A DNA stretch of 64,000 bases from an uncultured Bacteroidota bacterium. GTDB taxonomy: Bacteria; Bacteroidota; Ignavibacteria; UBA10030; UBA6906. Both the position numbers and the translations under genes were made by a program. This document shows, piece after piece, positions 1 to 63,096 of the stretch (positions are counted from its first letter, which is position 1; each line of letters starts with the position of its first letter). The stretch is from the NCBI GenBank assembly GCA_963700635.1, contig CAVOYH010000001.1:64001-128000 (forward strand), read 5' to 3'. A model generated the notes under the pieces. It did no database searches. It was not told where the DNA came from and saw nothing but the letters and a program-made list of their open reading frames with translations.

Positions 1-2
1 TG

Positions 3-833
3 GGTGAAGTACGGATTTCGGACACGACCACGGTGGACCGCGATCACAACCGTTACAATACGGTAGCAGTTGACGCTCAGAGCAACATTTATGCGTTTTA
101 CACGCTCGGTGTGATCGCGGGAGCCGATCCGCGCCCTCGGAAACTGTTTATGCACAAAAAAGCATGGGCGGCCCCATGGACCCTGCCGGAAACGGCTGTC
201 CTGGCCTCGGATACGATCAGCTTCCTGGACATGAGTGCGGTGGCTGACAGCGACGACGTGCTTCATCTGACGTACCGGAGAGATATCCAGGCTGATACGC
301 TGGGTCTGGATGAGATTGTCTACACGTTTTCAAAAGACGGCGGAACGACATGGTCACCCCGCCTCGTGGTAAGCCGCCCGCTCCACGACGCCGGTTATGC
401 AACCATCGCAAATCGTGTCCGGAAAGCAACGGGAATCGATATCCTCCTCCGGGAATCACAGGATGAAGGTGTCGGGGACCAGAGCACCACGGCAATCATC
501 TATGCCAATGTCCCGTACAACTTTGTCACGTCAGTGAGCGACCAGAATCTGCCGGTCGGATTTGAGATTCTGGCGAACTATCCGAACCCCTTCAACCCTG
601 CTACCACGATCACCTATGATGTGGCCGCGAGAGGGCAGGTGAGGCTGGCGATTTATGATGTGCTGGGCCGTGAAGTGCGGATGCTGGTGAATGACGTGCA
701 GGATGGCGGCCGGTATGATGTCCGGTGGGATGGCCGCACCGATCTTCTCCAACCCGCAACAAGTGGAATGTATATCGCCCGGCTGAGTACCGACACCGGA
801 TCACGCACCTTGACCATGTTGCTCCTGAAGTAA
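3..833 (+). CDS. T9SS-sorted secreted protein (5'-truncated) with BNR/Asp-box motif and C-terminal FlgD-Ig/type A sorting domain
   Basis: Frame is open back to the window start. Asp-box YTFSKDGGTTWS. C-terminus NYPNPFNPATTITY...IYDVLGREVR...WDGR...SGMYIARL...MLLLK is a typical T9SS type A CTD. Confidence 0.85.
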   Translation, partial: GEVRISDTTTVDRDHNRYNTVAVDAQSNIYAFYTLGVIAGADPRPRKLFMHKKAWAAPWTLPETAVLASDTISFLDMSAVADSDDVLHLTYRRDIQADTLGLDEIVYTFSKDGGTTWSPRLVVSRPLHDAGYATIANRVRKATGIDILLRESQDEGVGDQSTTAIIYANVPYNFVTSVSDQNLPVGFEILANYPNPFNPATTITYDVAARGQVRLAIYDVLGREVRMLVNDVQDGGRYDVRWDGRTDLLQPATSGMYIARLSTDTGSRTLTMLLLK

Positions 834-841
834 CCCTCCTC

Positions 842-877
842 CCCGGCGGGACTGCGGTCCCGCCGGGCAGTTCTGTT
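842..877 (+). terminator. GC-rich hairpin (weak terminator or mRNA-stabilising stem)
   Basis: 11-bp perfect stem cccggcgggac/gtcccgccggg with 4-nt loop just after the stop at 833; only a weak U-tail (cagttctgtt). Confidence 0.5.
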
Positions 878-897
878 CACGCAAGGGCCACACGATT

Positions 898-3636
898 GTG
901 AAAACCATTCTTTCGTTCATCCTGCTCCTGTGTCTGCTGGCGTCCGGCACATTGACCGCCGGCGATACGGGTAAAATCTCCGGTACCATCCGTGACAGGG
1001 AATCCAATGAACCTCTGCCCGGAGCGAATGTTGTCCTGATCGGGACGCCTCTTGGTGCGACCGGGGACGTTAACGGCTTCTATTTCATCAACCGCGTCCC
1101 ACCCGGCACCTATCGGGTTCAGGTAAGCCTCATCGGCTACCAGACGAAGGTGTTCACGGAGGTTCACGTGATGGCTGATGTCACCACCGAGCTGAGTGCT
1201 ACACTCAGCGGAACGGCCGTGGAACTGGGGACGGTGGAAATCACCGCTCACCGCCCGGTGGTGCAGAAAGATCAAACGGCCACACGGACAATCATTGACG
1301 GAGCAACCATCGTCAAAGATCTGCGCTTCCAGGATGTCGGTGAGATCCTCCGCCTGCAGGCGGGTGTCACGCTTGGAAACGATGGAAACCTGCACGTAAG
1401 GGGTGGCCGAACCGGGGGCATGGTATACCAGATCGACGGTATTCCAGTCCAGAACCCGCTCTTCCGCTCAACCGCCGGCGAGATTGAGGTTGAGAATGTC
1501 CAGGAGTTGCAGGCTCATCTGGGTACCTTTGACGCTGAATACGGCAACGCCGCCGATGGCGTGATCACGGTCTATACAAAGGACGGAGGTGATCGTATCA
1601 CCGGCCGGATCGGTTATGAGTCCCCCCGCCTGAACGCCTCACCCTATCAAAAATCTGACTGGAATCTGGACAGGCCGGAGGTTCAGGCATTGCCCGCGGA
1701 CCAGCAGGCACAGTACAAGGACGAGGTGCGAAAACCCGACGGCACATCGGCCTACGAGTATGTGGGCGTGCTGGATGATAAGCATGCGGAAGATCTGCTC
1801 CTGATCAAGGCCCTGGGCACATGGTCGGCCAATCTCTCGGGTCCTGTCCCGGGTCTTTCGGATATAAAATTTTATGCCACCGGACGTCTCCGTCAGGAAA
1901 ACAACAGCCTCCCCTACGGGTATACACTGCTTCGTTCTGCGACTCTGAAGCTGACCTATCCCATCACCACCGAGCTCTTGTTGCGTGGGTCAGTGGACCT
2001 CTCCAAAGCATACCGTCAGACGTACGACCACGCGTATAAATACTGGCGCTGGTGGGATGCCGGAATTGACCCGCTGGGGAGAACCGGAGGATATCCGATC
2101 AACACGGATCAGAGCAACAGGGAGATGTTGTCCATGCGGCACGTCCTCTCCTCAAGCACGTTTTATGATCTTTCCCTTGCGCGTATTTACGACTACACCG
2201 AGCTGGTTGTCCCGGATCGCACCGTGACGTATGATCCGGCAACGGGCAATCTTCTCACCAGCGATTATGTACGGAGACAATGGGTGGGCGGGAACGACTC
2301 GGGATTCCGGTACGGGGACGTCCGGTACTGGACAAACTCAAAGTCGACGCAGTTTCTGTTCAAAGGAAATCTGGAAAGTCAGATTCATCCAAGCCATCAA
2401 CTGCGGACAGGATTTGAGGCAAAGGTCCACGAGATCAGCCGTCACCGGATCGGCATGCCCACGTTGCCCACGCTGGAATTCTTCACCTACCGTCCGCTGG
2501 AAGCTGCTGCGTATTTTCAGGACAAGGTCGAGTACAGTTTTATGATCTTGAAGGCAGGCGTGCGGTTGGATTATTTTGACCCCCGCGCAACGGAATATCC
2601 GGATCCGGCAAAAATTATCGAAGTGATCACCGCACCCGGGGGATCGGCCCAGTATACGTCTATCCCCAAAGTGCCGGTAAAACAACATTTCCAGATCAGC
2701 CCGCGTATCGGAATTGCCCACCCCATCTCAGATAAGACATCCATTCATTTTGCGTACGGACATTTCTTCCAGATTCCCCGTTTCTACGATTTGTACCGGA
2801 ACGACGGGCTGCAGGATGTCCTCGTGAGTGATGCGCTTATCGGAAATCCGGGGTTAAAACCCGAGCGGACCGTTTCATTCGAGGTCGGACTTCAGCAGGA
2901 GCTCTCGCCGGAGTGGGGATTAAACGTCACTGCGTACTCCAAGGACATTACAAACCTGACATCCAGTTACTACTATTTTGTAGGACGGGATTACTCGATC
3001 TTTATCAATTCCGATTTTGCGAGGGTGCAGGGGATCGATATTACGCTTGATAAACGTTTCACGAACTTTTTCTCCGGACGATTGGTCTATTCGCTGATGA
3101 ATGCGATCGGAAACCATTCCGATCCGGCCGGCGGGTACACGTATCGCGAAGAGGAGGCGCACCTCCGTCCAAACCGCAACTACCCGCTGGATTTTGACCA
3201 GAGGCACAAAATTACGGGTACGGTCAGTGTCCGCCTGCCCGAACACTTTGGGCCGGAGCTCCTGGGTGTGTATCCGCTTGAACACCTCGCGGTGGCTTCC
3301 GTGTTCACGGTGGGAAGTGGTTTGCCATACACGCCCACTTCGCGTGCGTCGGAGGAAACGGGAATTGTCCCGGAACCCAATAGTGCCCGCCGCCCCTGGA
3401 CGTACAATCTTGATGTAAAACTTTCGCGCGAGATTCGTTTCTCCGGACTCCGTCTTACGGCCTATTGTGATGTGAGCAATCTTTTTGACCAGGTGAATAC
3501 GGTCTTTATCTGGAGCCGGACCGGCGAGCCGTGGGACGAAGGGTCAACATCGGTGCGCTCCAAAGATCGTCAGGCCAATCCCGAAAACGTCGGAACGCGG
3601 CGTATCGTCCGGGTCGGCGCCATTCTTGAATTTTGA
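898..3636 (+). CDS. TonB-dependent receptor with N-terminal carboxypeptidase-regulatory-like domain
   Basis: Signal peptide; GKISGTIRDRESNEPLPGANV; plug motifs LHVRGGR and FDAEYGNA; LKPERTVSFEVG; C-terminal beta-signal ending in F. Confidence 0.93.
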   Translation: MKTILSFILLLCLLASGTLTAGDTGKISGTIRDRESNEPLPGANVVLIGTPLGATGDVNGFYFINRVPPGTYRVQVSLIGYQTKVFTEVHVMADVTTELSATLSGTAVELGTVEITAHRPVVQKDQTATRTIIDGATIVKDLRFQDVGEILRLQAGVTLGNDGNLHVRGGRTGGMVYQIDGIPVQNPLFRSTAGEIEVENVQELQAHLGTFDAEYGNAADGVITVYTKDGGDRITGRIGYESPRLNASPYQKSDWNLDRPEVQALPADQQAQYKDEVRKPDGTSAYEYVGVLDDKHAEDLLLIKALGTWSANLSGPVPGLSDIKFYATGRLRQENNSLPYGYTLLRSATLKLTYPITTELLLRGSVDLSKAYRQTYDHAYKYWRWWDAGIDPLGRTGGYPINTDQSNREMLSMRHVLSSSTFYDLSLARIYDYTELVVPDRTVTYDPATGNLLTSDYVRRQWVGGNDSGFRYGDVRYWTNSKSTQFLFKGNLESQIHPSHQLRTGFEAKVHEISRHRIGMPTLPTLEFFTYRPLEAAAYFQDKVEYSFMILKAGVRLDYFDPRATEYPDPAKIIEVITAPGGSAQYTSIPKVPVKQHFQISPRIGIAHPISDKTSIHFAYGHFFQIPRFYDLYRNDGLQDVLVSDALIGNPGLKPERTVSFEVGLQQELSPEWGLNVTAYSKDITNLTSSYYYFVGRDYSIFINSDFARVQGIDITLDKRFTNFFSGRLVYSLMNAIGNHSDPAGGYTYREEEAHLRPNRNYPLDFDQRHKITGTVSVRLPEHFGPELLGVYPLEHLAVASVFTVGSGLPYTPTSRASEETGIVPEPNSARRPWTYNLDVKLSREIRFSGLRLTAYCDVSNLFDQVNTVFIWSRTGEPWDEGSTSVRSKDRQANPENVGTRRIVRVGAILEF

Positions 3637-3653
3637 TTCGCCACAGGATACGT

Positions 3654-6524
3654 ATGAAGACACCTCCTTTGATGTTCCGTTCCATTCTGCTGGGTTGCTG
3701 TGCGGTGTGTGTGCTCGCCGGTCAGCTCCGGGCTCAAGATGATGATCCGCCCCGTTCACCCACTGTTGTTCTGCCGAAGCGTGCAAGTTTCGCCGACGAA
3801 GCGATCGGGGTACAGACAAAAGGACAGTTGCAGAATCTGATTATGAACTATGGTCAGATTACCGATACACGATTTGCGGACGTCGGCAATGCCCCAACGG
3901 ACGTGTTCTTCAATATCCGTTACCCCCGTGAAAATTTCACGGGGCTGGTGGATGATTTTGCGCTCTTCTTTGCAATAAAGGAGAACAGCAAAAATGGTGA
4001 CAAGGGGAATGTCATTGACGGATGGACGGACGAAAAAAACGAGGATTGGGTCGCAAAGGATGGTGCCTATGGCAAGACACACTACAATGCGGCGCTTGAC
4101 CCCAACCCGCATGCCGAGTTGAAATACAACGGCCAGACCCCATACCTTGCGCATAGCGACCTCCCGGAAACCTGGCCGGTGGATAACACCGGAGTGGCCT
4201 TCTGGCCCGGAATCTTTCGCCGGGATCCGATCACCGGGATGGAAGTGCCCGGCGAGTTTGTTTCCGACCGCGACATCTATATGGAGTTTGATGACAAACA
4301 TAACCAGCTGGGCGACGTGGTCGGTATCGAAGTGCATGGCATGGCATACAGTTACGGACGTGTGTATGCCGAGAAGATGCTCTTTTATGAATTCTGGGTT
4401 ATTAACAAAAGCGGCAAAACTCTTAACGGCTGTTACTTCGGATCGTATCAGGATCCCGATTGTAGTGACCACACCGAAGAGGCACTCCTCTGGAAAGATT
4501 CCCTGTTTGCAGACGGAACCCGCGTCACATCGGTTGCGCAGCGTGATTTTGACGGGGACATCGGCGGGGCGACACGACCCAACGCGCGCGGCATCACGGA
4601 AGACTATACCTTCGGGACCATCGTATTTGAAACTCCGCGTGCTCTGGGCGTCACAGATTTTCACTACTTTGTAGATCCCGGGCCGGCCGATGATGCCTAT
4701 CTCTGGCCGATTATCTCCAGTGACCCCACAAATCCGCTTATCGCCGGGACCGCCGGCAACTATTTCCACGGTTCCAACCGGCGCATCGATGATGTTTCAC
4801 TCATCACAACCAAGCAGGATCTGGCCTGGATGATGTCAACCGGGCCGTTCTCGATGGCCCCCGGTGACACGGTAAAGTATTCGTTCGCGGTCATCGTTGG
4901 TGATGATGACGCGGACTATTACGCCAACGTATGGGAGGCCAAGAAACTCTACGATGCGTTGTACAACGGTCCGACTGCTCCACCGGCTCCCCGGCTTACG
5001 GCCATTCCCGGCGACGGCCGGGTGACATTGTACTGGGACGATACACCCGAGTCGGCGATCGACCCTTCGACCGGAGAGATGGATTTTGAGGGGTACAAGA
5101 TATACCGGAGCGAAGACGGCGGCATAACGTGGGGCACCAAGATCACCGACGCGCTGGGTCGTACGTACGGGTACGTCCCAGTTGCTCAATTTGATCTCAA
5201 GAACAACATCAAGGGTGCCGATCCCAAGAACTCGCTTGCCTGGCTGGGAACTGACAGTGGTCTCAGACATAGCTGGGTCGATAGTGCGGTCGTCACAGGC
5301 ATCACGTACTCCTATACCATTGTCTCATACGACCGCGGCACGCCAACATTGTATTCGCTGGAGACGACGCGGGGTGACGGGCCGCAGGTCAAAAATTTTG
5401 TCTCGGCCACTCCTCTCCCTCCGGCCAGCGGCAAGATCCCGGCGCGATTAAAAACCATGACGAAGACGCAGGGAACGGGCAAGGGAACAGTGACCGTGGA
5501 AGTGTTGGATGATCGGGCGCTGAAGACGGATCCCTACACGATCGTCATGGAAGGGACGCCGGCCCGCTCCTTCTCGGTTATCCGCCGCGATGGGAATAAC
5601 ACCAGAATCTATACCAGCAAACCGGTGAATTCCTCGGACCTGGCGGTGGCTGACGGATTTCGCGTCAGCGTGAACACGCAGGACCGGATCGGCGGAATCA
5701 CGGGCATCACTGACCAGGACGGAAATATTGTTGTCGGATCATCCAATCTGAGCCGGGATAGCTCCTGGTATGTAACGTATGCAGAAAACGCACAGGCCGA
5801 CACGCTGGCGCGCAGCTTCGATTACGAAATCCGGTTCGCCACCACAACTTCCATTGCCTACAGCTGGGGTGTTGCGGGGTCTGTCGCGAAATACAACGTC
5901 CCCTTTTCTGTCTGGAACACGACAACGAACACTCCCGTGGCATTTGAGATCAGAGATCTGAACAACAACAATCAGTGGGAGGAAGGGGAAGCGGTGTACA
6001 TCACCCGTGTGCCGTATCCGTCTCCCGCGCCGGCGATGGGTGCGGCAAACCCGGCCACCAACATCAAGGAATTCGCCTATCAGATACTGATCACCAACGC
6101 TCCGGCCGATACCGCCCGCCGGTTGCCGGTCGCCGGCACCGTGATCCGGGTCACCAGCTACAATGCACTGACGGACAACGACCGGTATGAATTTAGTTTC
6201 AGCCCCGCATCATTCGATGCCGGCGGCGTTGACCTGAGCGAGATCAGGGTTGTCCCGAATCCGTATATCGTCACATCGAAGTATGAATCCGAACAGAACG
6301 TCCGGCAGATCCGTTTTATGTATCTTCCGCCGGAATGCACGATTACCGTGTACACGGTGGCCGGAACGCGGGTGAAGACACTCACTCAGAGCAGCACCAC
6401 CGGATCCCTGAGTTGGAACCTGGTGACGGATTGGGGACAGGCGCTGGCGTTTGGCGTGTATGTGTATGTCGTAGAAGATCCCAGGGGCAACCGCCATATC
6501 GGAAAATTTGCGTTGATCAAGTGA
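3654..6524 (+). CDS. Large secreted protein with FN3-like domain and T9SS-like C-terminal domain (TBDR-associated cargo)
   Basis: Signal peptide; APPAPRLTAIPGDGRVTLYWD...DFEGYKIYRS (FN3-like); C-terminus IRVVPNPY...IRFMYLP...WNL...GVYVYVV...GKFALIK. ATG at 3654 preferred over TTG at 3633. Confidence 0.8.
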   Translation: MKTPPLMFRSILLGCCAVCVLAGQLRAQDDDPPRSPTVVLPKRASFADEAIGVQTKGQLQNLIMNYGQITDTRFADVGNAPTDVFFNIRYPRENFTGLVDDFALFFAIKENSKNGDKGNVIDGWTDEKNEDWVAKDGAYGKTHYNAALDPNPHAELKYNGQTPYLAHSDLPETWPVDNTGVAFWPGIFRRDPITGMEVPGEFVSDRDIYMEFDDKHNQLGDVVGIEVHGMAYSYGRVYAEKMLFYEFWVINKSGKTLNGCYFGSYQDPDCSDHTEEALLWKDSLFADGTRVTSVAQRDFDGDIGGATRPNARGITEDYTFGTIVFETPRALGVTDFHYFVDPGPADDAYLWPIISSDPTNPLIAGTAGNYFHGSNRRIDDVSLITTKQDLAWMMSTGPFSMAPGDTVKYSFAVIVGDDDADYYANVWEAKKLYDALYNGPTAPPAPRLTAIPGDGRVTLYWDDTPESAIDPSTGEMDFEGYKIYRSEDGGITWGTKITDALGRTYGYVPVAQFDLKNNIKGADPKNSLAWLGTDSGLRHSWVDSAVVTGITYSYTIVSYDRGTPTLYSLETTRGDGPQVKNFVSATPLPPASGKIPARLKTMTKTQGTGKGTVTVEVLDDRALKTDPYTIVMEGTPARSFSVIRRDGNNTRIYTSKPVNSSDLAVADGFRVSVNTQDRIGGITGITDQDGNIVVGSSNLSRDSSWYVTYAENAQADTLARSFDYEIRFATTTSIAYSWGVAGSVAKYNVPFSVWNTTTNTPVAFEIRDLNNNNQWEEGEAVYITRVPYPSPAPAMGAANPATNIKEFAYQILITNAPADTARRLPVAGTVIRVTSYNALTDNDRYEFSFSPASFDAGGVDLSEIRVVPNPYIVTSKYESEQNVRQIRFMYLPPECTITVYTVAGTRVKTLTQSSTTGSLSWNLVTDWGQALAFGVYVYVVEDPRGNRHIGKFALIK

Positions 6525-6527
6525 ACT

Positions 6528-7553
6528 ATGAAAACACTCCTCTGCATACTCGTGTCCGTCGTCTGTTCGGCGGGCAGTGCCTTCGGGCAACAGGATAACA
6601 AAGCCGGCACCACAGCGGCACAATTTCTCAAGATTGGCGTCGGCGCCCGTTCCATTGGCATGGCGGAAGCTGCGGTCGGACTTGTGGAAGACCCCAGCGC
6701 TATGTACTGGAACGTGTCGGGGTTGACCGGAGTCAACTCGGTGGCGGTGACCGCAACCCACACGAACTGGTTTGCCGACCTCACCCATCAGTATTTCGGG
6801 ATCGTGTTGCCGGTGGGAGACGATCACCGATTCGGTTTAAATGCCACGGTTCTGAACCTGGGGGAAATTGAGACCACCACGGAACAACAACCCCGGGGAA
6901 CAGGCACTTTTTTTAAGGCCACTGACGTGGCTATCGGGGTCTCCTATGCGGTGAGACTGGTGGACTTCTTTTCCTTCGGAGCCACCGTCAAGTTTGTCTC
7001 CCAGAGTATTGCGAACGAATCCGGATCAGCAATCGGAGCAGATCTGGGAACCACTCTCCGCACCGGATACAAGGGCATCACAATCGGCATGGCCTTTTCC
7101 AACTTCGGGACAGGCATGAAGCTGGATGGCAGGGATTTGCACAGGACCTATGATCCTCACCCGAACAATTCCGCCAACACCGGCGTATCGAGCTATCTCG
7201 GGACCGAATCCTGGGATCTGCCTGTCATGTTCCGCGTGGGTATCGGGTGGGAGCTTGTTGGTCCGGGAGAAGCACTGATGCAGGATGACATGCATGCTCT
7301 GCGGCTCGGTGTCGATGCGCGACATTCCAACGACGCGCCGGAAAATGCCAGTGTGGGCCTGGAGTATGTCTGGGAGCGCCTCGTCGCTCTGCGCGGCGGA
7401 TACTACTTTAATGATGATGTGCGCACGTGGAGTGCCGGAGCAGGCGTCCGCTGGCAATCCGCGAGTACGTTCGCTGTCGGCGTGGACTATGCGTACGCAA
7501 GTCTGGACCCGCTCGGACCTGTGCATGTGTTTACCCTGACGATGGGATTCTGA
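6528..7553 (+). CDS. PorV/PorQ family outer-membrane beta-barrel protein
   Basis: Hallmark N-terminus KAGTTAAQFLKIGVGARSIGMAEA...SAMYWN; alternating beta-strand pattern; terminal F. Confidence 0.9.
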   Translation: MKTLLCILVSVVCSAGSAFGQQDNKAGTTAAQFLKIGVGARSIGMAEAAVGLVEDPSAMYWNVSGLTGVNSVAVTATHTNWFADLTHQYFGIVLPVGDDHRFGLNATVLNLGEIETTTEQQPRGTGTFFKATDVAIGVSYAVRLVDFFSFGATVKFVSQSIANESGSAIGADLGTTLRTGYKGITIGMAFSNFGTGMKLDGRDLHRTYDPHPNNSANTGVSSYLGTESWDLPVMFRVGIGWELVGPGEALMQDDMHALRLGVDARHSNDAPENASVGLEYVWERLVALRGGYYFNDDVRTWSAGAGVRWQSASTFAVGVDYAYASLDPLGPVHVFTLTMGF

Positions 7554-7555
7554 GT

Positions 7556-8476
7556 ATGAGGGGGAACGTGCCAGGCGGGGCGACACTGTTCGTGTTGGGA
7601 ATCCTCCTTACGCTTTCGGCAACCGGATCCGGAATATCCTCCGAACCCGGGCAGCGAACCTCCCGGTTCGGCACGAACGGATACGTCGAGTATGTTCCGG
7701 GATCCATGCCCCTCATCATCACCATTCCACATGGCGGTACCCTGGAACCCGGCGAACTGCCGGATCGTATTTCGGGGACACTCAGCAGGTACGATACCAA
7801 CACGCTGGAACTTGGGCGCGCAATTGCCGCAGCTCTTTTCAGACAGACGGGACGTTCTCCGTATCTTGTCATCACCCATGTCCACAGAAAGAAGCTCGAC
7901 ACGAATCGCGAGGTCTTTGAAGCGGCGCAGGGTGATTCTCTGGCGAGCCTTGCGTGGGAGGAATTTCACGCGTTCATCCGGGAAGCAAAAGCCGAAGTGG
8001 TCCGTCACTTCGGATCCGGTCTCCTCGCGGATCTGCACGGACACCGTCACACGCGGCCGTGGGTGGAATTGGGATATGTGCTCTCGGCCGCACAGGCGTC
8101 ACTCCCTGATGATTCGCTCAACACACCGGATGTGGTTGCGGCATCGAGTATCGCCTCACTCGCCCGGATGCCGGGTAACTCCATGGCCGGACTGCTCCGC
8201 GGCCCGATGAGTCTTGGCGCGTTACTCGAAGAAGAGGGATATGAAGCTGTACCATCTCCCCGTAATCCTTTTCCCCGCCAAGATCACTATTTTGCGGGTG
8301 GATACAATACTGAACAACACGGGTCCCATGATGCAGGACCAATTGTAGCCATTCAGGTCGAAACACCCTGGCGCACCGTGCGTGATACAGAGATCCACCG
8401 GCAGAAGTTCGCGGACGCAGCATCCATCGCCCTGGTCCGATTTCTGGACATACATTTTGGATCGTATGGCGAATAG
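7556..8476 (+). CDS. Exported N-formylglutamate amidohydrolase-like Zn hydrolase
   Basis: Hydrophobic N-terminus; motifs PLIITIPHGG, HRKKLDTNR, DLHGH, YFAGGY, AIQVE. ATG lies 2 nt after the porV stop. Confidence 0.75.
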   Translation: MRGNVPGGATLFVLGILLTLSATGSGISSEPGQRTSRFGTNGYVEYVPGSMPLIITIPHGGTLEPGELPDRISGTLSRYDTNTLELGRAIAAALFRQTGRSPYLVITHVHRKKLDTNREVFEAAQGDSLASLAWEEFHAFIREAKAEVVRHFGSGLLADLHGHRHTRPWVELGYVLSAAQASLPDDSLNTPDVVAASSIASLARMPGNSMAGLLRGPMSLGALLEEEGYEAVPSPRNPFPRQDHYFAGGYNTEQHGSHDAGPIVAIQVETPWRTVRDTEIHRQKFADAASIALVRFLDIHFGSYGE

Positions 8477-8500
8477 AGTGCCTCCAATACTCTGTGCATT

Positions 8501-9526
8501 ATGAAATCCATCTCTCTGATAACTTTCCTGGCCGGCGTTATGGCGCTCGTCTCCCCTCCCGAATCCCCGGCCCGTGACTCCGTCCGGGTCCGCATCGCCC
8601 GTCTCGCTGAGAAAGACACCCTCACCGTACTGGTGACCGATTCCGGTCTGGGCGGCATTTCGGTGTGCGCTGATATAGAATCCCGCGCGCGACAGACGGG
8701 GATGTACAGTCAATTACGGATTATCTTCGCAAACGCCCTGCCGGAATCAAGTCAGGGCTACAATAAGATGAAGAGTACTGCCGAAAAGGTCCGGGTTTTT
8801 GACGCTGCCCTGCACGGGATGGCACGCTGGTACAAGCCCGATGTGATTCTCGTGGCATGTAACACACTCTCCGTGCTGATACCACAGACGACGTTTGTCG
8901 ATACCACATCGGTTCCGGTGCTCGGCATTGTGGAAACGGGGGTGGAGATGTTGTTCGAGCGGTTATCCGCTGACCCCAACTCATCAGCTGTCATTTTTGC
9001 CACGGAAACGACGATCGGCGCCGGCACGCATAGGAAGCTCCTTATTGAAAAAGGCATTGACTCCATGCGGCTGGTCCCTCAGGCATGCCCGGATCTTGCC
9101 GGTGAAATTGAGATGGACGCGGGGAGCGATCTGGTGTCCTCCTCCATCGGCGCGTTTGTCGGGGATGCTACTTTGCGTCTACGCACCGGAACAGCCAACG
9201 TGCTGGCAGGACTTTGCTGCACACATTATGGCTATGTGGCAAAAACATTTGAAGGGGCGCTGCGGGAGTGTGGAATCGAGGGCGTCGAAATTGTGGACCC
9301 GAATTCCCGCATGGGGGATATTCTCTTTCCGCCAGGAAAGCTCCGGCGCAGCGAAAAACCGGACATTCATGTCGCGGTTGTATCCCGTGCGATTATCGTG
9401 CCCGCAGAGATTTCATCGATCAGCACGCTGGTCGAATCGTTGTCGCCCGCGACCGCTGCGGCATTACGAACATATACAGTACAACGGGATCTGTTTATGT
9501 ACGGCACGACCGGCAGGCCGGAGTAG
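8501..9526 (+). CDS. Aspartate/glutamate racemase family protein (MurI-like) with N-terminal signal peptide
   Basis: DSGLGG, ACNT and CCTHY retain both catalytic Cys; ATETT; N-terminus MKSISLITFLAGVMALVS is signal-like. Confidence 0.85.
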   Translation: MKSISLITFLAGVMALVSPPESPARDSVRVRIARLAEKDTLTVLVTDSGLGGISVCADIESRARQTGMYSQLRIIFANALPESSQGYNKMKSTAEKVRVFDAALHGMARWYKPDVILVACNTLSVLIPQTTFVDTTSVPVLGIVETGVEMLFERLSADPNSSAVIFATETTIGAGTHRKLLIEKGIDSMRLVPQACPDLAGEIEMDAGSDLVSSSIGAFVGDATLRLRTGTANVLAGLCCTHYGYVAKTFEGALRECGIEGVEIVDPNSRMGDILFPPGKLRRSEKPDIHVAVVSRAIIVPAEISSISTLVESLSPATAAALRTYTVQRDLFMYGTTGRPE

Positions 9527-23501: not shown

Positions 23502-26500
23502 ATGAGAATGCAACTACATGCCGCTGCAACGCTCGCCATCATGTTCATCTTTGGCGCTACGGACGCGTACGCGCAGGCGACCAAATTCGTGATAACAGGT
23601 TCCGGGACGCAGATTGCCGGAGTGCCCCAGAACCTTACCATCAGGGCAGATAGTTCAGGACAACCCGCCACATCATATACAGGTGCCAGGAAGCTGATTT
23701 TCAGCGGAGCCACGGCCTCTCAGAATCCCGTTACGCAGCCAACTGTCAACGATTCGGGGGGGACTACAAGGAATTTCGGCGATACAACCGTCATCAGGTT
23801 CACAAACGGCCTCGCCACAGTCTCCGCCTCAAAGAACGGCGTGTTGAGGCTCTATAAGGCTGAGACGGCGACAGTCTCGGTCACAGACGGAACGATCTCT
23901 TCCCCCGTACCCGACCGGCTGACCGTCGTGGTTTCGGCGGCAGGGGTCGGGAAATTTGTCTGGTCCCTGACTTCGCCACAACTCAGCGGCGCTGCGTTTA
24001 CAGGCATCAATACGCTCACTGCCCAGGACAGTTGGGGGAATACCGTAACGGACTTCAGCGCGAATGCCAATAACGTCACCATCACAAATTCTCTCGGGGG
24101 CACGGTTACCGGACTCGGTACCGGCAACAACAATGTCCTGAACAAGACCCCGGATTTTTCAAGTGGTGTTGCCAACCTCACAAGTCTCGGGATGATCTAT
24201 TCAGGTTCCCCCGGATCTGTTACGTTCACGGCGACATCTGCAGGACCGGTTGCCACCGGGATCTCCTCTCCGGTGACCATCTCTTCCGGAACTCCCCAAA
24301 AACTTGTTATCACCGGGCAGGGGACGCAGGTCGCCGGGAAAGCACAGAATCTCACGATTACTGCGAGGGACGGCAGTAACAATGTTGCGTCATCATATGC
24401 GGGCGTTAAGTCTATCACATTTTCCGGAGCGCAGGCTTCCCCGGACGGGGATCAGCCTTCGGTCACTAGCAACACCGGTACACCGGTTAACTTCGGAACA
24501 GCTACAAATATTTCGTTTGTTGCTGGTATTGCACAGGTCTCCGGCAGCAACAACGGGGCGATGAGACTCTACACAGCCGAGACCGCCACCATTGCGGCAA
24601 CGGATGGCACGATCTCTTCATCGGGGGCGGACCGGCTGACTGTTGCCGTTTCTCCGGACTCGCTGGGAAAATTTGTGTTCATTGTTTCTCCATCCCAGAC
24701 TAATAATGTTCCCTTTGTCGGGGCCGACACACTTATCGCACAGGATGAGTGGGGGAACATCGTTCCGAGTTTTGATGCGTCGCAGAATCCCGTGATCATC
24801 AGCCCCATCGGTCTTATCGGCCGGATATCGGTGGGCGTCGGCAGAGATAGTATACTCAACCAGGTAGGGGACTTTTCTTCGGGTAAAGCCATCCTTTCCG
24901 GCAAATTGAAGTACACCGGGCTCATCGGGACGGGTCAGTTTAAGGCAACCTCTCAGCCATCGGGGCAAGCGGGAACTTCTGGCACTGTCACTATCGTGGC
25001 AGGAGAAGCCAGGCGGCTGGTGCTCGGCGGAACCGGTTCCGTGGGAGCCGGCGTGGCGAATGCTCTCACGATCACCGCAAGGGATACTTCAGGCAACGTC
25101 GCGACAGGCTACACGGGCACAAAAACACTCGGTTTTAGCGGGGCAAACCTCTCGCCGGACGGTGATGCCCCGTCGGTGACTGATTATCAGGGAACCGAGA
25201 AAGTTTTTTCCTGGACACCGAGGAACACAGACATTACATTCTCAAGCGGTGTCGCCACGGTTATCACAGGCGGCAAGAATGGAGTGATGCGTCTGCGCAA
25301 AGTGGAAGTCGCATCAATTGCCGTGAGTGATGGTAGTATTGGTACGCTGCCTGGCAGCGAGCTCAGCGTTTCCGTGTCGCCGGCCGGACTCAGGCGATTC
25401 TCGGTCATCCTGACTTCCCCGCAGACAAACGGCGTTACGTTCACCGGTGTGAACACTGTCACAGCCATCGACAGCTTTGGTAATATTGCGACCGGTTTTA
25501 ATCCCATCTCGAACAATGTCACCATGACGGCCCCCGGATTGGGAGGCACACTTTCGGGGCTTGGCTCCGGCGGCACCAATGTGCTGAACCAGGCTTCAGA
25601 TTTTGTCAGCGGTATCGCGAGCGTAAGTGGAAAACTTAAGTACACCGGGATCACCGGCAGCAGCGTGTTCACGGCCACATCTCAGTCGGGCAGAACCGGA
25701 TCAACAGCCGGCAGCATCGTTATCAATGTTGGTGAGGCCAAGCGTCTTGTTGTTACCGGAAGTGCGACGCAGCCCGCAGGTTCCGGCCGGAACCTCACCA
25801 TCACGGCAAAGGACAGCTCCGGAAACACTATCACCACCTACGCCGGAGATAAGTCTCTGGTCTTCAGTGGATCAGGGCCTTCAGCAAATCCCCCCACAAG
25901 CCCGACCGTGACGAACGCGGCCGGCGCCCAGGTGCCTTTCGGATTGTCAACGACCATCACATTTTCCGCGGGTATAGCGCAGGTCAGCGGGAGCGCCAAC
26001 GGTCTGATGCGCCTGTATCGGTCGGGAACTGACACCATCGCGGTGTCGGACGGTCTTATCGGCTCCGGTGCGGGAGACCGTCTCATCGTGACCGTTTCTG
26101 CCGATGCACTCGCAAAATTTGTAGTCAGCTTCACCTCCCCTCAACAAAGCGGGATTGCATTCACGGGGGACAATACGATTGTTGCGCAGGACAGTTTTGG
26201 CAACACCAAGACAGACTTTGACGCGTCATCAGACAACGTCACCGTCAGTGCCAACGCGCTCGGCGGTGTCGTCAGTGGCCTGGGTTCCGCAGCGAACAAT
26301 GTGCTGAATCAGTTCTCTGATTTTGTAGCAGGGACGGCAAATCTGACGGGCAAGCTGAAGTACACGAGTCAGGTGGGGACGACGACGTTCACAGCCGTTA
26401 ATTCCACAAGCAAAGCCGGAACCTCGGGTAACGTCCAGATTGTGGCGGGGGGTGCGACCCGTCTTGTTATCGCCGGCACGCCGACCATGACCGCAGGCGG

Positions 26501-29500
26501 GGTGCAGAGTCTTACGATTACGGCACGCGACGGTTCAGGAAACACCGTGACCTCGTATGCCGGGAACAAATCTCTCATTTTTTCGGGTGCGGACTCATCC
26601 ATCACGCCGGCTCTCCCGCCCACTGTTACCAATAGCTCCGGCGCGGCAACTGCCTTCGGCGCCGCGACGGCGATCACCTTTACCGCTGGAATCGCCACGG
26701 TATCAGGCAGCACTAACGGGGTGATGCGGCTGTTGCGCGCGCAAACTGCCATCATCTCCGTTTCGGACGGTACCATCAGTTCCAGCGGAAGTGACAGGCT
26801 CACCGTGGCCGTTTCACCGGCCGCTCTCGGCATGTTTGCCTGGACCATCACTTCTCCGCAGACCAACGGCGTGGCGTTTACAGGAACAAACACGCTTACT
26901 GCACAGGACGATTGGGGCAACACGCGAACGACATTTGATGCCTCCACCACGAACGTGACCATCACGACCACCCTGTCGGGCACGATCAGCGGTCTTGGTA
27001 GCGGTGGAATCAACGTACTCAACCGGAGCAATGACTTTGTTGCGGGGGTCGCAAACCTTACATCCCTCGGCATAAAATACACCGGCGCCATCGGAAGCGG
27101 CACCCTCACCGCCAACGGGGGAGGAAAAAGCGGAATCTCCGGCACACTGCAGATCGTTGCGGGTGGGGCGACGCGACTCGTCGTGCGAACGGTATCCAAT
27201 GACTCCATGACGACTCTCCTTGCCGGGGAAATACGGAATCTGTCGATTACAGCCAGGGACGGTTCAGGAAACATTGTGGTTTCGTACTCCGGGATGAAGC
27301 AGTTGACGTTTTCTGGAGCGGATTCCTCATCGAACCCCGCAACTGCCCCCACCGTCACCAACAGCAGCGGCACGGCCATCGGATTTGGCACACTCACGTC
27401 TCTGACGTTTACAAACGGGGTTGCCCAGGTGAGCGGGAACAGCAACGGAGTCCTGAGTCTGTACCGCGCACAGACGGCAACCATAGCCGTGACCGACGGG
27501 GCAATCAGCTCATCCGGTACGGACCGGCTTACCGCGACTGTTTCCCCGGGCCCACTTGCCAAGTTTAGCTGGGTGCTCTCGACGCCCCAGGTGAACGGTG
27601 TAGCGTTCACCGGAATCAACACATTAACCGCACAGGATGCGTGGGGGAACGCGGTATCGTCATTTGACGCCTCTGTGAGTAATGTGACTCTGAGTTCGTC
27701 ACTTGGCGGCACGATCACCGGACTTGGCACGGGAAATAGTGCAGTGATGAATCGGGCCACCGACTTTGCGGGCGGTATCGCGAACCTGACCGCGCTCGGA
27801 ATGAAGTACACAGGTCCGTTTGGCAATGGAACGTTCACCGCCACAGCGTCCGGGAAGGCAGGCACATCATCAACTGTGGCAATTGTTGCCGGGACGGCGT
27901 CACGTCTTGTGATTACCGGCTCTGCAACCCAGACCGCGGGGGCGGGACAGAATCTGACCATTACGGCCCGGGATACATCGGACAACCCGGTGGCAACATA
28001 CACAGGCACGAAGACCCTGACTTTTTCCGGAGCAAATCCCTCCACGAATCCGCTTACACAACCCTCCGTGACGAATTCCTCGGGGGTCGCCGTTTCTTTC
28101 GGTGCCTCAACCATGATAACATTCACCAATGGTGTTGCCACTGTAAGCGCAGGGCAAAATGGGCAGATGCGGCTGTACAAGGTGGAGAGTGCACTCATCA
28201 GCGTGACCGATGGAACGATCAGTTCCACGGGGACTGACCGGTTAAGCGTCACCGTGTCTCCGGGACTACTCGGGCAGTTTGCCTGGACATTAACCTCTCC
28301 TCAGGTGAATGGCGTGAACTTCACCGGGACGAATACTCTTGTTGCGCAGGACAACTGGGGGAACGCCGTTCCGACGTTCGATGCGTCAACGAACAACGTT
28401 TCCATCACGACTGTCCTTCCCGGTTCACCGGGTGCGATTACCGGCCTGGGAACCCTCGGCAATAATGTCCTGAACAGGGCAACCGACTTTGTGTCCGGTC
28501 TGGCAAACCTTACAGCGCTGGGATTACGCTACACCGGATCGGCGGGAACAGGAACCTTTACCGCAACGTCTGCGACTGGCTCGAAGACAGGCGTTTCTCC
28601 AGCCATCACGATCGACAACCCCGCTCCAACAATTGCCACAGTCACGCCGGGCGAGGCAAATCGCTCGCAGACTATCATGGTGGCGATCACCGGCACAAAT
28701 TTCAGATCCGGAGTAACCACCGTAAGCTTCGGATCAAATGTGACGATCGATACAATTGTTGTGTTGTCCCCGACGCAGATGTCCGTCACTGTCTCGATAG
28801 GGGCTGCTGCCGCACTGGGCCAGCGGAGTGTGAGTGTCACCAATCCCACCCCCGGTGGAGGAACAGCAACACTTCCACTCGCATTCCGGGTGAAAAATAT
28901 TCCCACACTCATCAGTCTGTCTCCCTCAATCGGCATCCGAGGCCAGACGTACGGGGTGTTGATCACCGGGACAAATTTTGCTGAAGGGGTAAGTTCGGTC
29001 GGCATACTTGGATCAAATATCACGCTCAACTCCGATACGGTGCTCAATCCGTCCACCATTCTGGCGAACATCACCATCGGCGGTACGGCGGTGGACGGGG
29101 TCCGCCAGTTCACCGTGACAAACGGTGGGCCGGAGGGGGGGACCTCGAACGGCGTGGGGTTCACGGTCGGTAACAATCCTGTCCCTACACTCACAAGCAT
29201 AACCCCTGACACGGCAACGCGCCTCCAATCGCTCGAGTTAACGATCAAGGGCACCAATTTTTACCAGGGGATCTCATCGGTTAGTCTGGGCAGCGGCATC
29301 ACCGTCCTCAATACCGTCATTGACAGTGCCAAGCAGATCCGTCTGAATGTGACAGTGACTGACACTGCAGCGACCGGGCCGAGTGCGGTCAGCGTGATTA
29401 ACGCCGGACCGGGAGGCGGGACTGCGACTCTGACGAACGGGTTCAACGTGACCAACCCTGTCCCAACGCTTTCGGGGATTTCGGTACAAAACGGTTCACG

Positions 29501-32500
29501 ATTGCAGACGCTTGCCATGACCCTGACGGGAACCCGGTTCATAAACGGGGTGACGACGGTATCGCTCGGAACGGGCATTGCCGTGAATTCAACTCTTGTA
29601 CAGAGCCAGACAGAAGTGCTTATCGGTTTTGTGATCGATTCGAGTGCCGTGCTCGGCCCGCGCTCCGTTACGGTGTCCAACCCGGCTCCGGGTGGAGGAT
29701 CTGCTCAGCTGCTGGATGCGTTTACCGTAAACAATCCGCTTCCAACCATTACAACCCTGGCTCCCGAGAGCACCCTTGTCGGCGGCGCAGGTACGTCACT
29801 GCAGGTGAATGGAACAAATTTTGTACCCGGATCGGTGGTCCGGCTGGGCGCGTTGTCCCTGTCAACCGCTCTGGTAAATCGGACACAGCTGACGGCAACG
29901 ATTCCCGCAAGCGAAATCGACACCGCACGGTCCTTGTCCGTGTCCGTGTTCAACTCGACGCCGGGAGGAGGAGTTTCCAATACGCGGACGTTTACTGTCC
30001 GTAATCCCGCGCCGTCCCTTGTCAGCATTACACCCTCCACCGGAAGTCGTTTGCAGACGCTGAATGTGGTGTTCGACGGTACAAACTTTGTCCCCGGAGT
30101 ATCCACCGTCAGCTTTGGTGGGGAGGACATCCAGGTCAACAGCATCACCGTGACTACGGCCGAACGTTTGACCGCCAACATTAGCATTCTTTCGACAGCT
30201 GTTATCGGACCGCGTGATGTCTCGGTCATCAATCCATCTCCCGGTGGAGGAATCTCAGCCAAACGTACATTCACGGTAGCCGACAATCCGGTGCCAACGC
30301 TGACGACGGTAAATCCCGCGAGTGGGCCCCGGCTTGGGCGTGTTGATGTCATCGTGTCAGGCTCAAACTTTATTAACGGCGTTACGTCGGTGGATTTTGG
30401 CCCGGGTATCATCGTCAACCAGACCACCATCAATAGCGCGGTCCAACTGACCGCCACCATCACGATCGGTATCGCTGCGGCCACCGGTCCACGGTCTGTC
30501 ACGGTTATTAATGCGGCACCGGGTGGCGGGAGCGCGACAAAACCGAGCGGGTTTGCCGTGTTGAATCCCGGGCCCACACTCTCGTTCCTTCTCCCCACCA
30601 ATGCGCAACAACTCCAGCGGTTGAACATCGTGTTTGATGGAACCGGCTTCATCGACGGCGTGAGCACGGTGAATATGGGAACAGGGATCACCATCAACGC
30701 GCAGACGGTTGTCAGCGATACGCAGATTACGGCAGACATCACGGTAACAGAAAATGCCGCTACGGGTCCCCGTGACGTCTGGGTGATAAACCTGTCACCG
30801 GGGGGAGGCTCAGCTGTCCTGACCAACGGGTTCGTTGTGGGGAACAACCCCGGACCGCGGATTCTAAGCGTGACGCCCGCAACCGGGAAGCGTCTGGAGA
30901 CAATTGATCTGGTGATCCGGGGGGAGAACTATGTCAGCGGAGTAACATCCGTTGATCTTGGCACGGAGGTGATGGTCAACTCCGTCACGGTGGACAGCTC
31001 GACGCGTCTAACGGCAAACATCACCGTCAGGGCCGCAGCTTCCACCGGTGCACGCACCGTCTACGTGACGAACGCGCCTCCCGGCGGAGGCAGGGACAGT
31101 ATTCTCTCAGGGTTCACCGTGACCAATCCTCTTCCGACCCTGACCTCGGCGACACCATCGGGAGCGACACGGTCACAGACGTTAAATGTGGTTCTCCGGG
31201 GAACAAACTTTATCGGTCAGGCAACATCTGCCAATTTTGGGGCAGGCATCGCCGTGAACTCCGTTACCGTTGACAGCGCGACGCGGATCACGGCCAATAT
31301 TTCCGTTGATGCCGCTGCGACTCTCGGGGCCCGAAATCTCGTCCTCTTTAATCCACTTCCGGGAGGAGGCAATTCAACCCCGATCGCGTTCACTGTTAGC
31401 CTTGCACCGCCGCCCACACCAACCCTGCGGCATCCGGGAAACACCCAGCCGAATCTTCCGACCACGTTTACTGTCCGGTGGGATTCTTCTGCGGGGGCGA
31501 CGAACTATCATCTACAGGTGTCTGTGAGTTCGCTGTTTCTCAGCACGGCCGTTGATGATTCTACAATTACAACAACATCGCACAAAATCGGCCCGCTGTT
31601 GAACAATACAACGTACTACTGGCGTGTCCGGGCAAGAAACAGCGGCGGCACAAGCGCCTTTTCTTCAACGTGGAGTTTTACACCGTCATATCCTGCCGTG
31701 CTGATCCTGAGCTCCTCGGTGCCCTTCCCGAACCTGAATGCTGCGTCCGACTACCTCCCTGCAGATTACCGGTTGATCGGGCTGCCCGGAACCGGTTCAT
31801 CGCTGGTCAGCAATTTCCTGAGCGGCGTGCAGGGAACCGATTGGCAGGTGTATTGGGACAACGGCAACCCTTCAAACTACGCTGTCAAATTCGACGGCGG
31901 TCAGGGGTTTACCTTTTCAACCGGCAGGGCATACTGGTTGATCAGAAAGAACACCTGGACAATCAACGCGTCAGTCGATGCTGCGGTGCTTGACACCGGC
32001 GGCAATGCCGTGGTTCCGTTGCATCGTGGTTGGAATCTTATCACCAATCCGTTCGCGCTTGATGTACCCTGGACGGCAGTGCAGTCGGTGAACGGACAGG
32101 CTGCGCGCGAACCGCTCTGGAACTTCCTGGGGACGCAGGGATTCCAGATATCAACCATTCTGAAGACGTATGCCGGCTACTATTTCTATAATGTGGACAG
32201 TGTTGCCACTCTGTTAATTCCTTACGCCGGCACGTCAGGAGTCCTGAAACAGGTGGACACCGCCTCCTCCGGCTCGTGGGCAGTGGGGATCAGGGTCTCG
32301 ACGGATGCCTACACAGAATCTTCCGCCCGGCTGGGGATCATGTCCGAGGCTGAGGATGGATTGGACCGGTTCGACTACCACAAGCCGCGGACGATGGGCG
32401 CCCTTCCGGGGGTGGTATTTAATCGCCCCGATCTGGACCCCGCCACACCAGCCTTTGTTACAGACATACGCAGGCAGGTGGGGAAAATCGCACGGTGGCC

Positions 32501-62955: not shown

Positions 62956-63053
62956 GGGGGATACACCGTATCCCCCCGCGCCGGATAATGCGCAGATGAC
63001 GGCGTAGACACCCCCCCGATGAGGGGGAGGGATCTGCGCCTTCGTCGCATCTG
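62956..63053 (+). other. Intergenic tandem stem-loops
   Basis: gggggatac-acc-gtatccccc (62956-76), then a long imperfect hairpin cagatg..ggcgtaga..ccccc / ggggg..tctgcgcc..catctg (62993-63053). Confidence 0.5.
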
Positions 63054-63096
63054 GGTTTATGGAACTCTGCACACACATTATGGAGCCCGAAACGGT

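Follow-up and report, generated by a model that had tools for sequence, protein, structure and literature searches.

The window analysed here comprises 64,000 nucleotides (nt) from an uncultured Bacteroidota bacterium of the class Ignavibacteria (assembly GCA_963700635.1, contig CAVOYH010000001.1, positions 64,001 to 128,000). Near its start, three consecutive genes encode a TonB-dependent receptor, a large protein with a variant type IX secretion system (T9SS) C-terminal domain (CTD), called the cargo below, and an outer-membrane barrel of the PorV/PorQ family (Table 1). An earlier note on this DNA had described a receptor followed by a secreted protein of about 960 residues with a variant CTD and, 3 nt further on, by a PorV/PorQ-family gene; the three open reading frames (ORFs) on the + strand and their scores on hidden Markov models (HMMs) confirm this order, the stop codon of the cargo gene ending at position 6524 and the barrel ATG lying at 6528. 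The longest cargo ORF opens with a TTG, from which all cargo residue numbers are counted, and the likely start, an ATG 17 nt past the receptor stop codon, leaves a protein of 957 aa. The receptor passes the models for TonB-dependent receptors (PF07715, 29.5 bits for a cut-off of 23.9; PF00593, 85.7 bits for a cut-off of 27) and fails the SusC/RagA model TIGR04056 (61.7 bits for a cut-off of 368, over residues 26-288 only). That no SusD follows it, as the earlier note had it, holds: the cargo belongs to no Pfam family, and the SusD models PF07980 and PF14322 have no match in this 97% complete genome (4.2 Mb, 6 contigs), in a search with a positive Bacteroides thetaiotaomicron control. The hairpin at 842-867 sits just past the stop codon of the upstream gene, which encodes a type A CTD, and is likely a terminator that sets the module off as a transcription unit of its own; since no comparable hairpin lies between the three genes, they likely share that unit. 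A scan for sigma-70 promoters gave 8 sites for 5.1 expected, with a promoter type that may not fit this lineage.

Table 1. Features of the module and its surroundings (window coordinates, unless another locus is named)
Feature	Residues	Position	Strand	Basis
Terminator candidate: G+C-rich hairpin, 11 pairs (10 G-C)		842..867	+	Pattern scan, consensus match only
TonB-dependent receptor, 912 aa, signal peptide, terminal ...ILEF		898..3636	+	Pfam/NCBIfam profile searches
Receptor, CarboxypepD_reg-like N-domain	27-103	976-1206	+	Pfam
Receptor, Plug	123-221	1264-1560	+	Pfam PF07715
Receptor, beta-barrel (TonB_dep_Rec_b-barrel)	375-816	2020-3345	+	Pfam
T9SS cargo, putative surface partner; longest ORF from TTG 3633 (963 aa), likely start ATG 3654		3654..6524	+	
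Cargo, signal peptide	1-30		+	Structure model/sequence
Cargo, conserved low-confidence segment	31-107	3723..3953	+	Alignment and model, pLDDT under 50
Cargo, galactose-mutarotase-like beta-supersandwich	~60-447	3810..4973	+	Structure alignment
Cargo, FN3-like beta-sandwich	448-596	4974..5420	+	5z06_B, Z 9.9, rmsd 1.9, 90 aligned
Cargo, more beta-sandwich domains, high pLDDT	600-859	5430..6209	+	Secondary structure, pLDDT
Cargo, variant CTD (VVPNPY ... AFGVYVYVV ... GKFALIK)	860-963	6210..6521	+	HMM scans, structure alignment, complex model
PorV/PorQ-family outer-membrane barrel, 341 aa, signal peptide, terminal ...TMGF		6528..7553	+	HMM, structure model
FGase-like and racemase-like neighbours		window 7427-9526; L063 8946-9884; L065 8915-12704; L064 10421-11545		

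The arrangement is one of many in this genome. We searched all ORFs with the window's three proteins (phmmer), listed the neighbourhoods of the matches, and defined a triplet as a receptor followed by a protein with related C-terminal ~100 aa and then by a PorV-like gene; the genome-wide count came to 13. Eighteen genes exceed the cut-off of the PorV/PorQ family model NF033709, of which 14 are linked to a receptor and 13 of these stand in triplets. The fourteenth barrel (C3:404626-405708) directly follows a receptor, with a variant-CTD protein three genes upstream of that receptor, and the family is completed by the true PorV and PorQ, a PorV2-like gene and one gene of a tandem pair on C5. All 14 receptor-linked barrels score below the PorV and PorQ equivalog cut-offs, and the clusters hold 12 of the genome's 25 Plug-domain matches. 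A complete T9SS with abundant ordinary cargo is present as well, given a PorU (972 bits) followed by a true PorV (256.5 bits, cut-off 250) at C2:139462-144793, a true PorQ (231.3 bits, cut-off 220) at C1:348920-350059, a true PorZ (330.5 bits, cut-off 260) and an SprA (802 bits), both away from the module, and 122 matches to the type A CTD model TIGR04183. The possibility that the barrel is merely the genome's single housekeeping porV, standing by chance beside a receptor and a cargo, is refuted and left with a probability close to nil: the true PorV lies by PorU on another contig, PorQ, PorZ and SprA lie elsewhere, and the family has 18 members. The barrel is a dedicated paralogue, as the earlier note had supposed.

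Paralogue distances among the 13 triplets are correlated between CTD and barrel (Mantel r = 0.79), receptor and barrel (r = 0.93) and receptor and CTD (r = 0.78; p = 2e-4 in each case), and the nearest-neighbour relations of the three genes largely agree, which shows that the module duplicates and diverges as a block. The three genes have thus diversified jointly, in line with the co-phylogeny that the earlier note had looked to, without this implying a co-evolution of contacts.

Several copies depart from the standard layout. In two modules (C3:1795705-1802344 and C3:1651474-1658642) the cargo is split into 2-3 ORFs (C3:1798795-1801291 and C3:1654095-1657558), with the CTD on a separate ORF of 123 or 157 aa. 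The module at C4:60512-67536 is decayed: its receptor lies in two overlapping frames, CTD similarity is lost halfway and the barrel is truncated (257 aa); the intact module at C3:1885670-1892973 is closest to it, with 81-82% identity in receptor and barrel. At C5:195123-198587, a 518-aa BNR/sortilin-like protein with a PorU/PorZ-like CTD and a weak match to the F510_1955 glycosylhydrolase precedes two tandem PorV-like genes, one above and the other below the NF033709 cut-off; since no TonB receptor is nearby, cargo-barrel pairing also exists without one. At C3:400753-414926, a PorV-like gene comes directly after the receptor, ahead of genes for an NHL-repeat protein and for a fusion of patatin, POTRA and Omp85 parts, and the receptor is preceded by a variant-CTD protein, a type A cargo (sub-threshold CBM56, DUF5689) and a 606-aa unknown protein.

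Conservation of the module extends well beyond this genome. Relatives spanning the full cargo (41-85% identity, ~950-990 aa) carry the labels Ignavibacteria, Melioribacteraceae, Calditrichia, KSB1 and others, and all named ones are annotated as 'hypothetical protein'. Among 28 related loci taken from species-representative genomes, 19 keep the order receptor, cargo, PorV-like gene (labels Ignavibacteriota, Melioribacteraceae, Fidelibacterota/Marinimicrobia and Zixiibacteriota), and three are interrupted by a contig end with two adjacent members visible. With 13 copies here and these loci elsewhere, the arrangement recurs far beyond chance. We also surveyed 81 genomes of the GTDB phylum, this one included: the 18 other genomes of the window's class have 4-20 PorV-family genes each, many other genomes 1-5, and one family (17 genomes) none. 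In five genomes of five other families, at least 28 of 60 PorV-family matches have a Plug match 2.4-6.8 kb upstream on the same strand, a lower bound because 150 of the 168 Plug matches were covered. In a tree of the barrels, the window's copy groups with those of four related loci, and other paralogues group with loci labelled Fidelibacterota or Zixiibacteriota, so that the paralogues are old; the backbone of the PorV-family tree is unresolved and its PorV and PorQ branches are long, so that descent of the receptor-linked barrels from PorV or from PorQ is left undistinguished.

Two of the six related loci without a PorV-like gene alongside, L081 (3960-11092) and L082 (3702-10817), labelled Cytophagales and Balneolaceae, encode a ~710-aa homologue of the C-terminal half of the cargo, which in L082 carries a PorZ-like CTD. 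After it come a type A cargo, a 488-516-aa protein without family and the beginning of a receptor whose N-terminus is SusC-like. These loci may represent a relative of the module with another wiring.

The cargo tail reads IRVVPNPY...GKFALIK, as quoted in the earlier note, and differs from the type A tails elsewhere in the window (...MLLLK, ...KMLLMK, ...KMMLVK, ...KMMFVK). We scanned the last 123-157 residues of the 14 cluster cargoes against NCBIfam and Pfam models. The C-terminal end of the PorZ model (~661-757 of 757) is matched by 13 of them and is the top model for 11, and that of PorU is matched by 11 and is the top model for two, including the window's CTD (E 2.2e-6 for PorU, 4.9e-4 for PorZ). 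For the cargo itself, the weak match of residues 863-947 to the PorU C-terminal end is the sole NCBIfam match. The type A cut-off (TIGR04183, 23 bits) is reached by four of the 14 CTDs, the window's scoring 18.5 bits and having no match at E <= 1 to PF18962 (cut-off 27 bits). The type B model TIGR04131 lists none of the 14 at E <= 1, and the Pfam family CHU_C (PF13585) is matched by nine, all below threshold and not including the window's. The variant CTD is thus a distinct class that falls outside both type A and type B at the curated cut-offs and lies nearest to the CTDs of PorZ and PorU. Of what the earlier note had drawn from type A and type B systems, a distinct CTD class tied to PorV-like genes stands, and the link to type B with its PorP/SprF partner falls, given no TIGR04131 match, sub-threshold CHU_C matches only and a barrel that is not PorP/SprF.

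The tie to the barrel genes was quantified with two HMMs trained solely on this genome, the first on 25 type A tails and the second on 12 intact variant tails. Only one of the 123 ORFs that score better as type A, namely PorU, is followed by a PorV-like gene, against 12 of the 12 variant tails, whose type A HMM scores are 0-17.7 bits. Independently of these seeds, the true PorZ of the genome reaches 21.8 with the variant HMM and 0 with the type A one. A scan of the whole genome with the PorZ model gave 18 matches on its CTD part, ten of them triplet cargoes and one the upstream cargo of the fourteenth cluster; as some of the remaining matches are ordinary type A cargoes, PorZ likeness is enriched among the module CTDs and not exclusive to them. 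In structure, the modelled CTD superposes on the PorZ CTD 5m11_A with Z 11.1 and a root-mean-square deviation (rmsd) of 2.2 over 88 residues at 23% identity. According to passages of a review, the two T9SS proteins known to retain their CTDs are PorU, whose CTD stays on PorV, and PorZ, whose CTD stays on PorQ, and cognate PorV-like barrels are proposed to shield CTDs from cleavage (PMC10202324).

The barrel scores 204.5 bits on NF033709 (cut-off 90), residues 28-341 aligning to profile positions 1-326, and stays below the equivalog cut-offs (PorV NF033710, 79.5 of 250 bits; PorQ NF033711, 81.6 of 220; PorV2, 75.2 of 325); the NCBIfam scan of it listed no PorP/SprF model. Its only sequence relative in the PDB is PorV 6h3i_F (7.4e-16). 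For its structure model (predicted local distance difference test, pLDDT, 85) the top Foldseek match is the Flavobacterium PorV 8gl6_F, in the substrate-CTD-bound state (E 7.6e-17, TMq 0.69); 6h3i_F is also among the best, FadL and TodX come next, and BamG chains appear too. We modelled the barrel (35-row alignment) together with cargo residues 860-963, the complex that the earlier note had in view, in three runs with three controls. An interface is predicted in each run, with a score of 0.91 against 0.01 for the best control, though this may be memory of the solved complex 8gl6. Of 157 solved complexes 116 attain this score, as do 2 of 215 mismatched pairs, a rough guide only since we supplied our own alignments. 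The runs share at least 92% of contacts, with a partner pLDDT of at least 81, and the predicted interface sets a conserved N-terminal motif of the barrel (residues 23-36) and inward-facing residues against the VVPNPY, AFGVYVYVV and GKFALIK segments of the CTD. Among orthologues, the modelled barrel interface is better conserved than the other residues (0.82 vs 0.63), and among paralogues it is not (0.50 vs 0.47), a modest hint of pair specificity.

The structural neighbours of the barrel, FadL and TodX next after PorV and BamG chains further on, raise the alternative that it has nothing to do with the CTD, and either lets a small hydrophobic molecule through as a FadL-type channel or helps to assemble the receptor in the manner of BamG. 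Three paralogues do give weak BamG HMM matches (about 28 bits, cut-off 250), and a barrel directly follows a receptor without a cargo in 5 of 28 receptor-linked cases elsewhere and in one cluster here. This alternative is nonetheless highly improbable, as it would have to accommodate the presence of a barrel gene after every variant CTD and after a single type A one, the cluster on C5 with cargo and barrel genes and no receptor, the confidently predicted CTD-barrel interface, and PorV as the top match by both sequence and structure.

The sole long relative of the barrel that was found is a metagenome protein of 638 aa, P0243 (E 2.6e-6, 25% identity over 99% of the query), which joins a PorV-like region with FlgD_ig (CTD-like) and OmpA domains. 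Among proteins of 598-2000 aa no widespread cargo-barrel fusion was found, P0243 being the one weak case; such a blank is weak evidence.

The AlphaFold model of the cargo has a mean pLDDT of 77.5. Neither a Pfam family nor an NCBIfam enzyme family was found in it. Foldseek with the full 963-aa model gave low-TM multi-domain Ig/FN3 matches only, and a search of the ESM Atlas with residues 36-450 gave unnamed 'hypothetical protein' clusters only. The beta-supersandwich best matches the non-catalytic N-domains of glycoside hydrolase (GH) families GH15, GH65, GH94 and GH116 (VIA-align: 9ju0, Z 15.4, rmsd 3.6, 244 aligned; 1lf6, Z 14.5; 7w2t, Z 14.5). Several further FN3 entries match residues 448-596 with Z 9.3-9.5, and no specific structural match was obtained for residues 600-859. 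The most conserved stretch is residues 31-107, with 18 invariant columns (K49 to D108; 35 orthologues) and almost no secondary structure in the model. This candidate partner-dependent segment might need a partner, such as the receptor, in order to fold.

The cargo has no recognisable catalytic domain, the supersandwich being followed by FN3/Ig-like domains only, with no (alpha/alpha)6 or TIM domain; binding is therefore the simpler reading of the modelled fold, rather than catalysis. The cargo might instead act enzymatically at the surface, as a depolymerase or a modifying enzyme, and make the substrate of the receptor, in which case the anchoring could be the same. It has many invariant Asp, His, Trp and Tyr residues (e.g., D274-P-D-C-x-D279, H344 and H379), and its supersandwich also matches GH174 endo-fucanases (Z 10.0 and 9.6), polysaccharide lyases and aldose epimerases. 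The top matches (Z 12-15), however, are the non-catalytic N-domains of glycosidases and phosphorylases, and with neither a downstream catalytic domain nor an enzyme family we take an enzyme to be the lesser possibility, if one that deserves attention.

Taken together, we consider it rather probable that the module provides a T9SS-delivered surface partner, lastingly anchored on a private barrel and serving the co-encoded receptor. The receptor would import a substrate. The cargo would be exported by Sec and then translocated by the T9SS, its PorZ/PorU-like CTD would be recognised by the barrel encoded 3 nt downstream, and this barrel would take the cargo from the translocon and keep it on the surface by the uncleaved CTD, as PorQ does with PorZ and PorV with PorU. 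The galactose-mutarotase-like and Ig/FN3-like domains could then capture (or process) the substrate for the receptor, capture being the job of SusD and other surface lipoproteins in Bacteroidia. We infer the cooperation of cargo and receptor, and the nature of a substrate, from this arrangement.

A private barrel might also act as a shuttle only, which picks the cargo up at the SprA translocon in the way that PorP/SprF-like shuttles serve type B cargo, after which PorU would remove the CTD and the protein would be released or linked to lipopolysaccharide. PorU and about 120 type A cargoes point to an active sortase pathway in this genome, the type A cut-off is exceeded by four of the 14 cluster CTDs, and passages of PMC12618676 describe specialised shuttles that decide where a cargo ends up. 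The module CTDs are nevertheless closer to the retained CTDs of PorZ and PorU than to type A, and one barrel gene per cargo gene suggests stoichiometric use, which is not decisive; a pure shuttle thus appears unlikely.

Several points weigh against the lasting anchor in the service of a receptor, and we gather them here. Retention of the CTD, that is anchoring and not shuttling only, is a property that sequence cannot reveal. The PorZ/PorU likeness is weak by HMM (E 1e-11 to 4e-3), some type A CTDs match these models too, and the high scores of the variant tails on the variant HMM are circular because these tails are its seeds. As a PorV-CTD complex (8gl6) is already solved, the complex score may reflect likeness to it, and the model would show a PorV-with-CTD likeness and a binding mode, not binding or exclusive pairing by this copy. 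Duplication of the whole operon without physical interaction would give the same Mantel correlations. In 6 of the 28 related loci (Cytophagales, Chitinophagales, Flavobacteriales, Balneolaceae), a homologue of the C-terminal half has no adjacent PorV-like gene. The supersandwich fold also occurs in catalytic proteins, as given above, and the FGase-like and racemase-like neighbours of this module do not indicate a plain glycan.

Lasting anchoring has its closest parallel in the PorZ-PorQ and PorU-PorV pairs of the Porphyromonas gingivalis attachment complex, in which T9SS-exported proteins that keep their CTD are held by a barrel of the PorV/PorQ family, as passages of PMC10202324 describe; the retention here would be of the same kind. 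The module CTDs match the C-termini of PorZ and PorU best, and the barrels share HMM family and fold. The differences are that those are single housekeeping pairs which process other cargo, whereas here there are 13-14 pairs per genome, and that these sit in TonB-receptor operons, each with a different uncharacterised passenger and with barrels below the PorV and PorQ cut-offs. The type B CTDs with their PorP/SprF-like partners, such as Flavobacterium johnsoniae SprB-SprF, follow the same logic of a variant CTD, a dedicated adjacent barrel gene and several specific pairs (passages of PMC9143113 and PMC12618676), the partner setting both secretion and final location (PMC12618676, likewise in part). 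In contrast with them, the CTDs here have no TIGR04131 match and at most sub-threshold CHU_C matches, and the barrel is of the PorV/PorQ and not of the PorP/SprF kind. Known type B pairs serve adhesins and gliding and lie outside TonB-receptor operons, whereas the module here lies inside one.

By locus logic, the module resembles a third group of systems. Next to the paralogous clusters lie a LacI regulator, an MGH1-like glycosidase, a GH38 enzyme that carries a type A CTD, proteins with PIG-L domains and more type A cargoes. SusC-SusD, RagA-RagB and BtuB-BtuG each consist of a TonB-dependent transporter and a surface lipoprotein partner. In these as here, a receptor gene is followed by the gene of a surface partner, and many paralogous loci lie beside regulators and glycosidases; the receptor here also has a SusC-like CarboxypepD_reg N-domain. 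The partner here, in contrast, is neither a lipoprotein nor SusD-like, and would depend on the T9SS and on the barrel, as a third protein, to reach the surface and stay there. The receptor does not pass the SusC/RagA model, and it is doubtful whether the cargo would cap it as a 'lid' in place of SusD, the role that the earlier note had inferred; a surface enzyme or a binding protein without a capping role would be just as conceivable. The window's copy also departs from a canonical polysaccharide utilisation locus in having no SusD, no SusC-grade receptor and no adjoining glycosidase. The module thus resembles PorZ-PorQ in anchoring, the type B CTD-SprF systems in its many private pairs and SusC-SusD in the logic of its locus; by curated thresholds, its proteins are outside the PorV, PorQ, type A, type B, SusC and SusD families.

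One might speculate further that the 'utilisomes' of the non-Bacteroidia members of the Fibrobacterota-Chlorobiota-Bacteroidota (FCB) group, by which we mean Ignavibacteria, Rhodothermia-like lineages, Fidelibacterota/Marinimicrobia, Zixibacteria, Calditrichota and KSB1, consist of a TonB-dependent transporter, a substrate-binding cap delivered by the T9SS in place of lipoprotein export, and a PorV/PorQ paralogue that, as a permanent stoichiometric subunit, retains the cap through a CTD that is not cleaved. Cognate CTD-barrel pairing would then have a third class, after type A with PorV and type B with PorP/SprF, and the module would be a functional counterpart of SusC-SusD in bacteria without SusD. 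We offer this wider picture tentatively and would not expect it to hold in all its parts.

Parts of the arrangement can be recognised in published loci. In the passages of PMC9530828, the legend of Fig. 2 describes tonB (a TonB-dependent receptor), hypA (a T9SS sorting-domain protein) and hypB (a PorV/PorQ family protein) in the alginate utilisation locus of Rhodothermus marinus, and it is there only that the three are found, under a key that reads 'Gray arrows: hypothetical genes'. Their order and sizes (2805, 2181 and 1056 nt) match the module, a likeness by annotation and not by sequence. For the xylan locus of the same species, a table in PMC6987092, a source also seen in passages, gives a TonB receptor followed by three hypothetical proteins, two of them with Por sorting domains, which may be the same triplet as judged by annotation only. 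In the passages of the Caldithrix abyssi genome paper, TonB receptors are mentioned only for B12 and thiamine (PMC5317091). Full-text literature searches, with subscription journals and supplements outside their scope, gave no paper that interprets the receptor-cargo-PorV-like triplet and, among the matches listed, none with PorV alongside Ignavibacteria, Marinimicrobia, Calditrichaeota, Zixibacteria or Rhodothermus.

T9SS research distinguishes two classes of signal and two types of barrel partner, nearly all of them known from Bacteroidia, and research on glycan uptake treats SusC/SusD as an FCB hallmark; the module links the two. About half of this genome's TonB-dependent receptors are paired with a T9SS cargo and a private PorV/PorQ-type barrel, and the same order occurs in several environmentally abundant, mostly uncultured phyla with no or few SusD genes. 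If lasting anchoring on private barrels is true, it explains how these bacteria display substrate-specific surface proteins, provides a simple genomic marker for uptake loci, and supplies many natural CTD-barrel pairs for the specificity of CTD shuttles, a question still debated for the T9SS. A cultivable test case appears to be at hand in the alginate locus of Rhodothermus marinus.

Within the window's own orthologous group, the neighbourhood is kept on both sides: upstream a BNR-repeat protein with a type A CTD, and downstream FGase (N-formylglutamate amidohydrolase-like) and Asp/Glu-racemase-like genes. As a speculation, these downstream neighbours hint at an amino-acid-containing substrate rather than a plain glycan. 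One orthologous locus has an AstE/AspA-like gene in place of the usual downstream genes.

Elsewhere in the window, a 3169-aa ORF (23502-33011) terminates in a type A CTD (...IIKMLLMK), and two adjacent large ORFs, at 59255-62941 (1228 aa) and 63019-64000 (1058 aa, continuing past the window), also have type A CTDs. The tails of these two are very alike (...RKMMLVK and ...RKMMFVK), and they are probably tandem paralogues.

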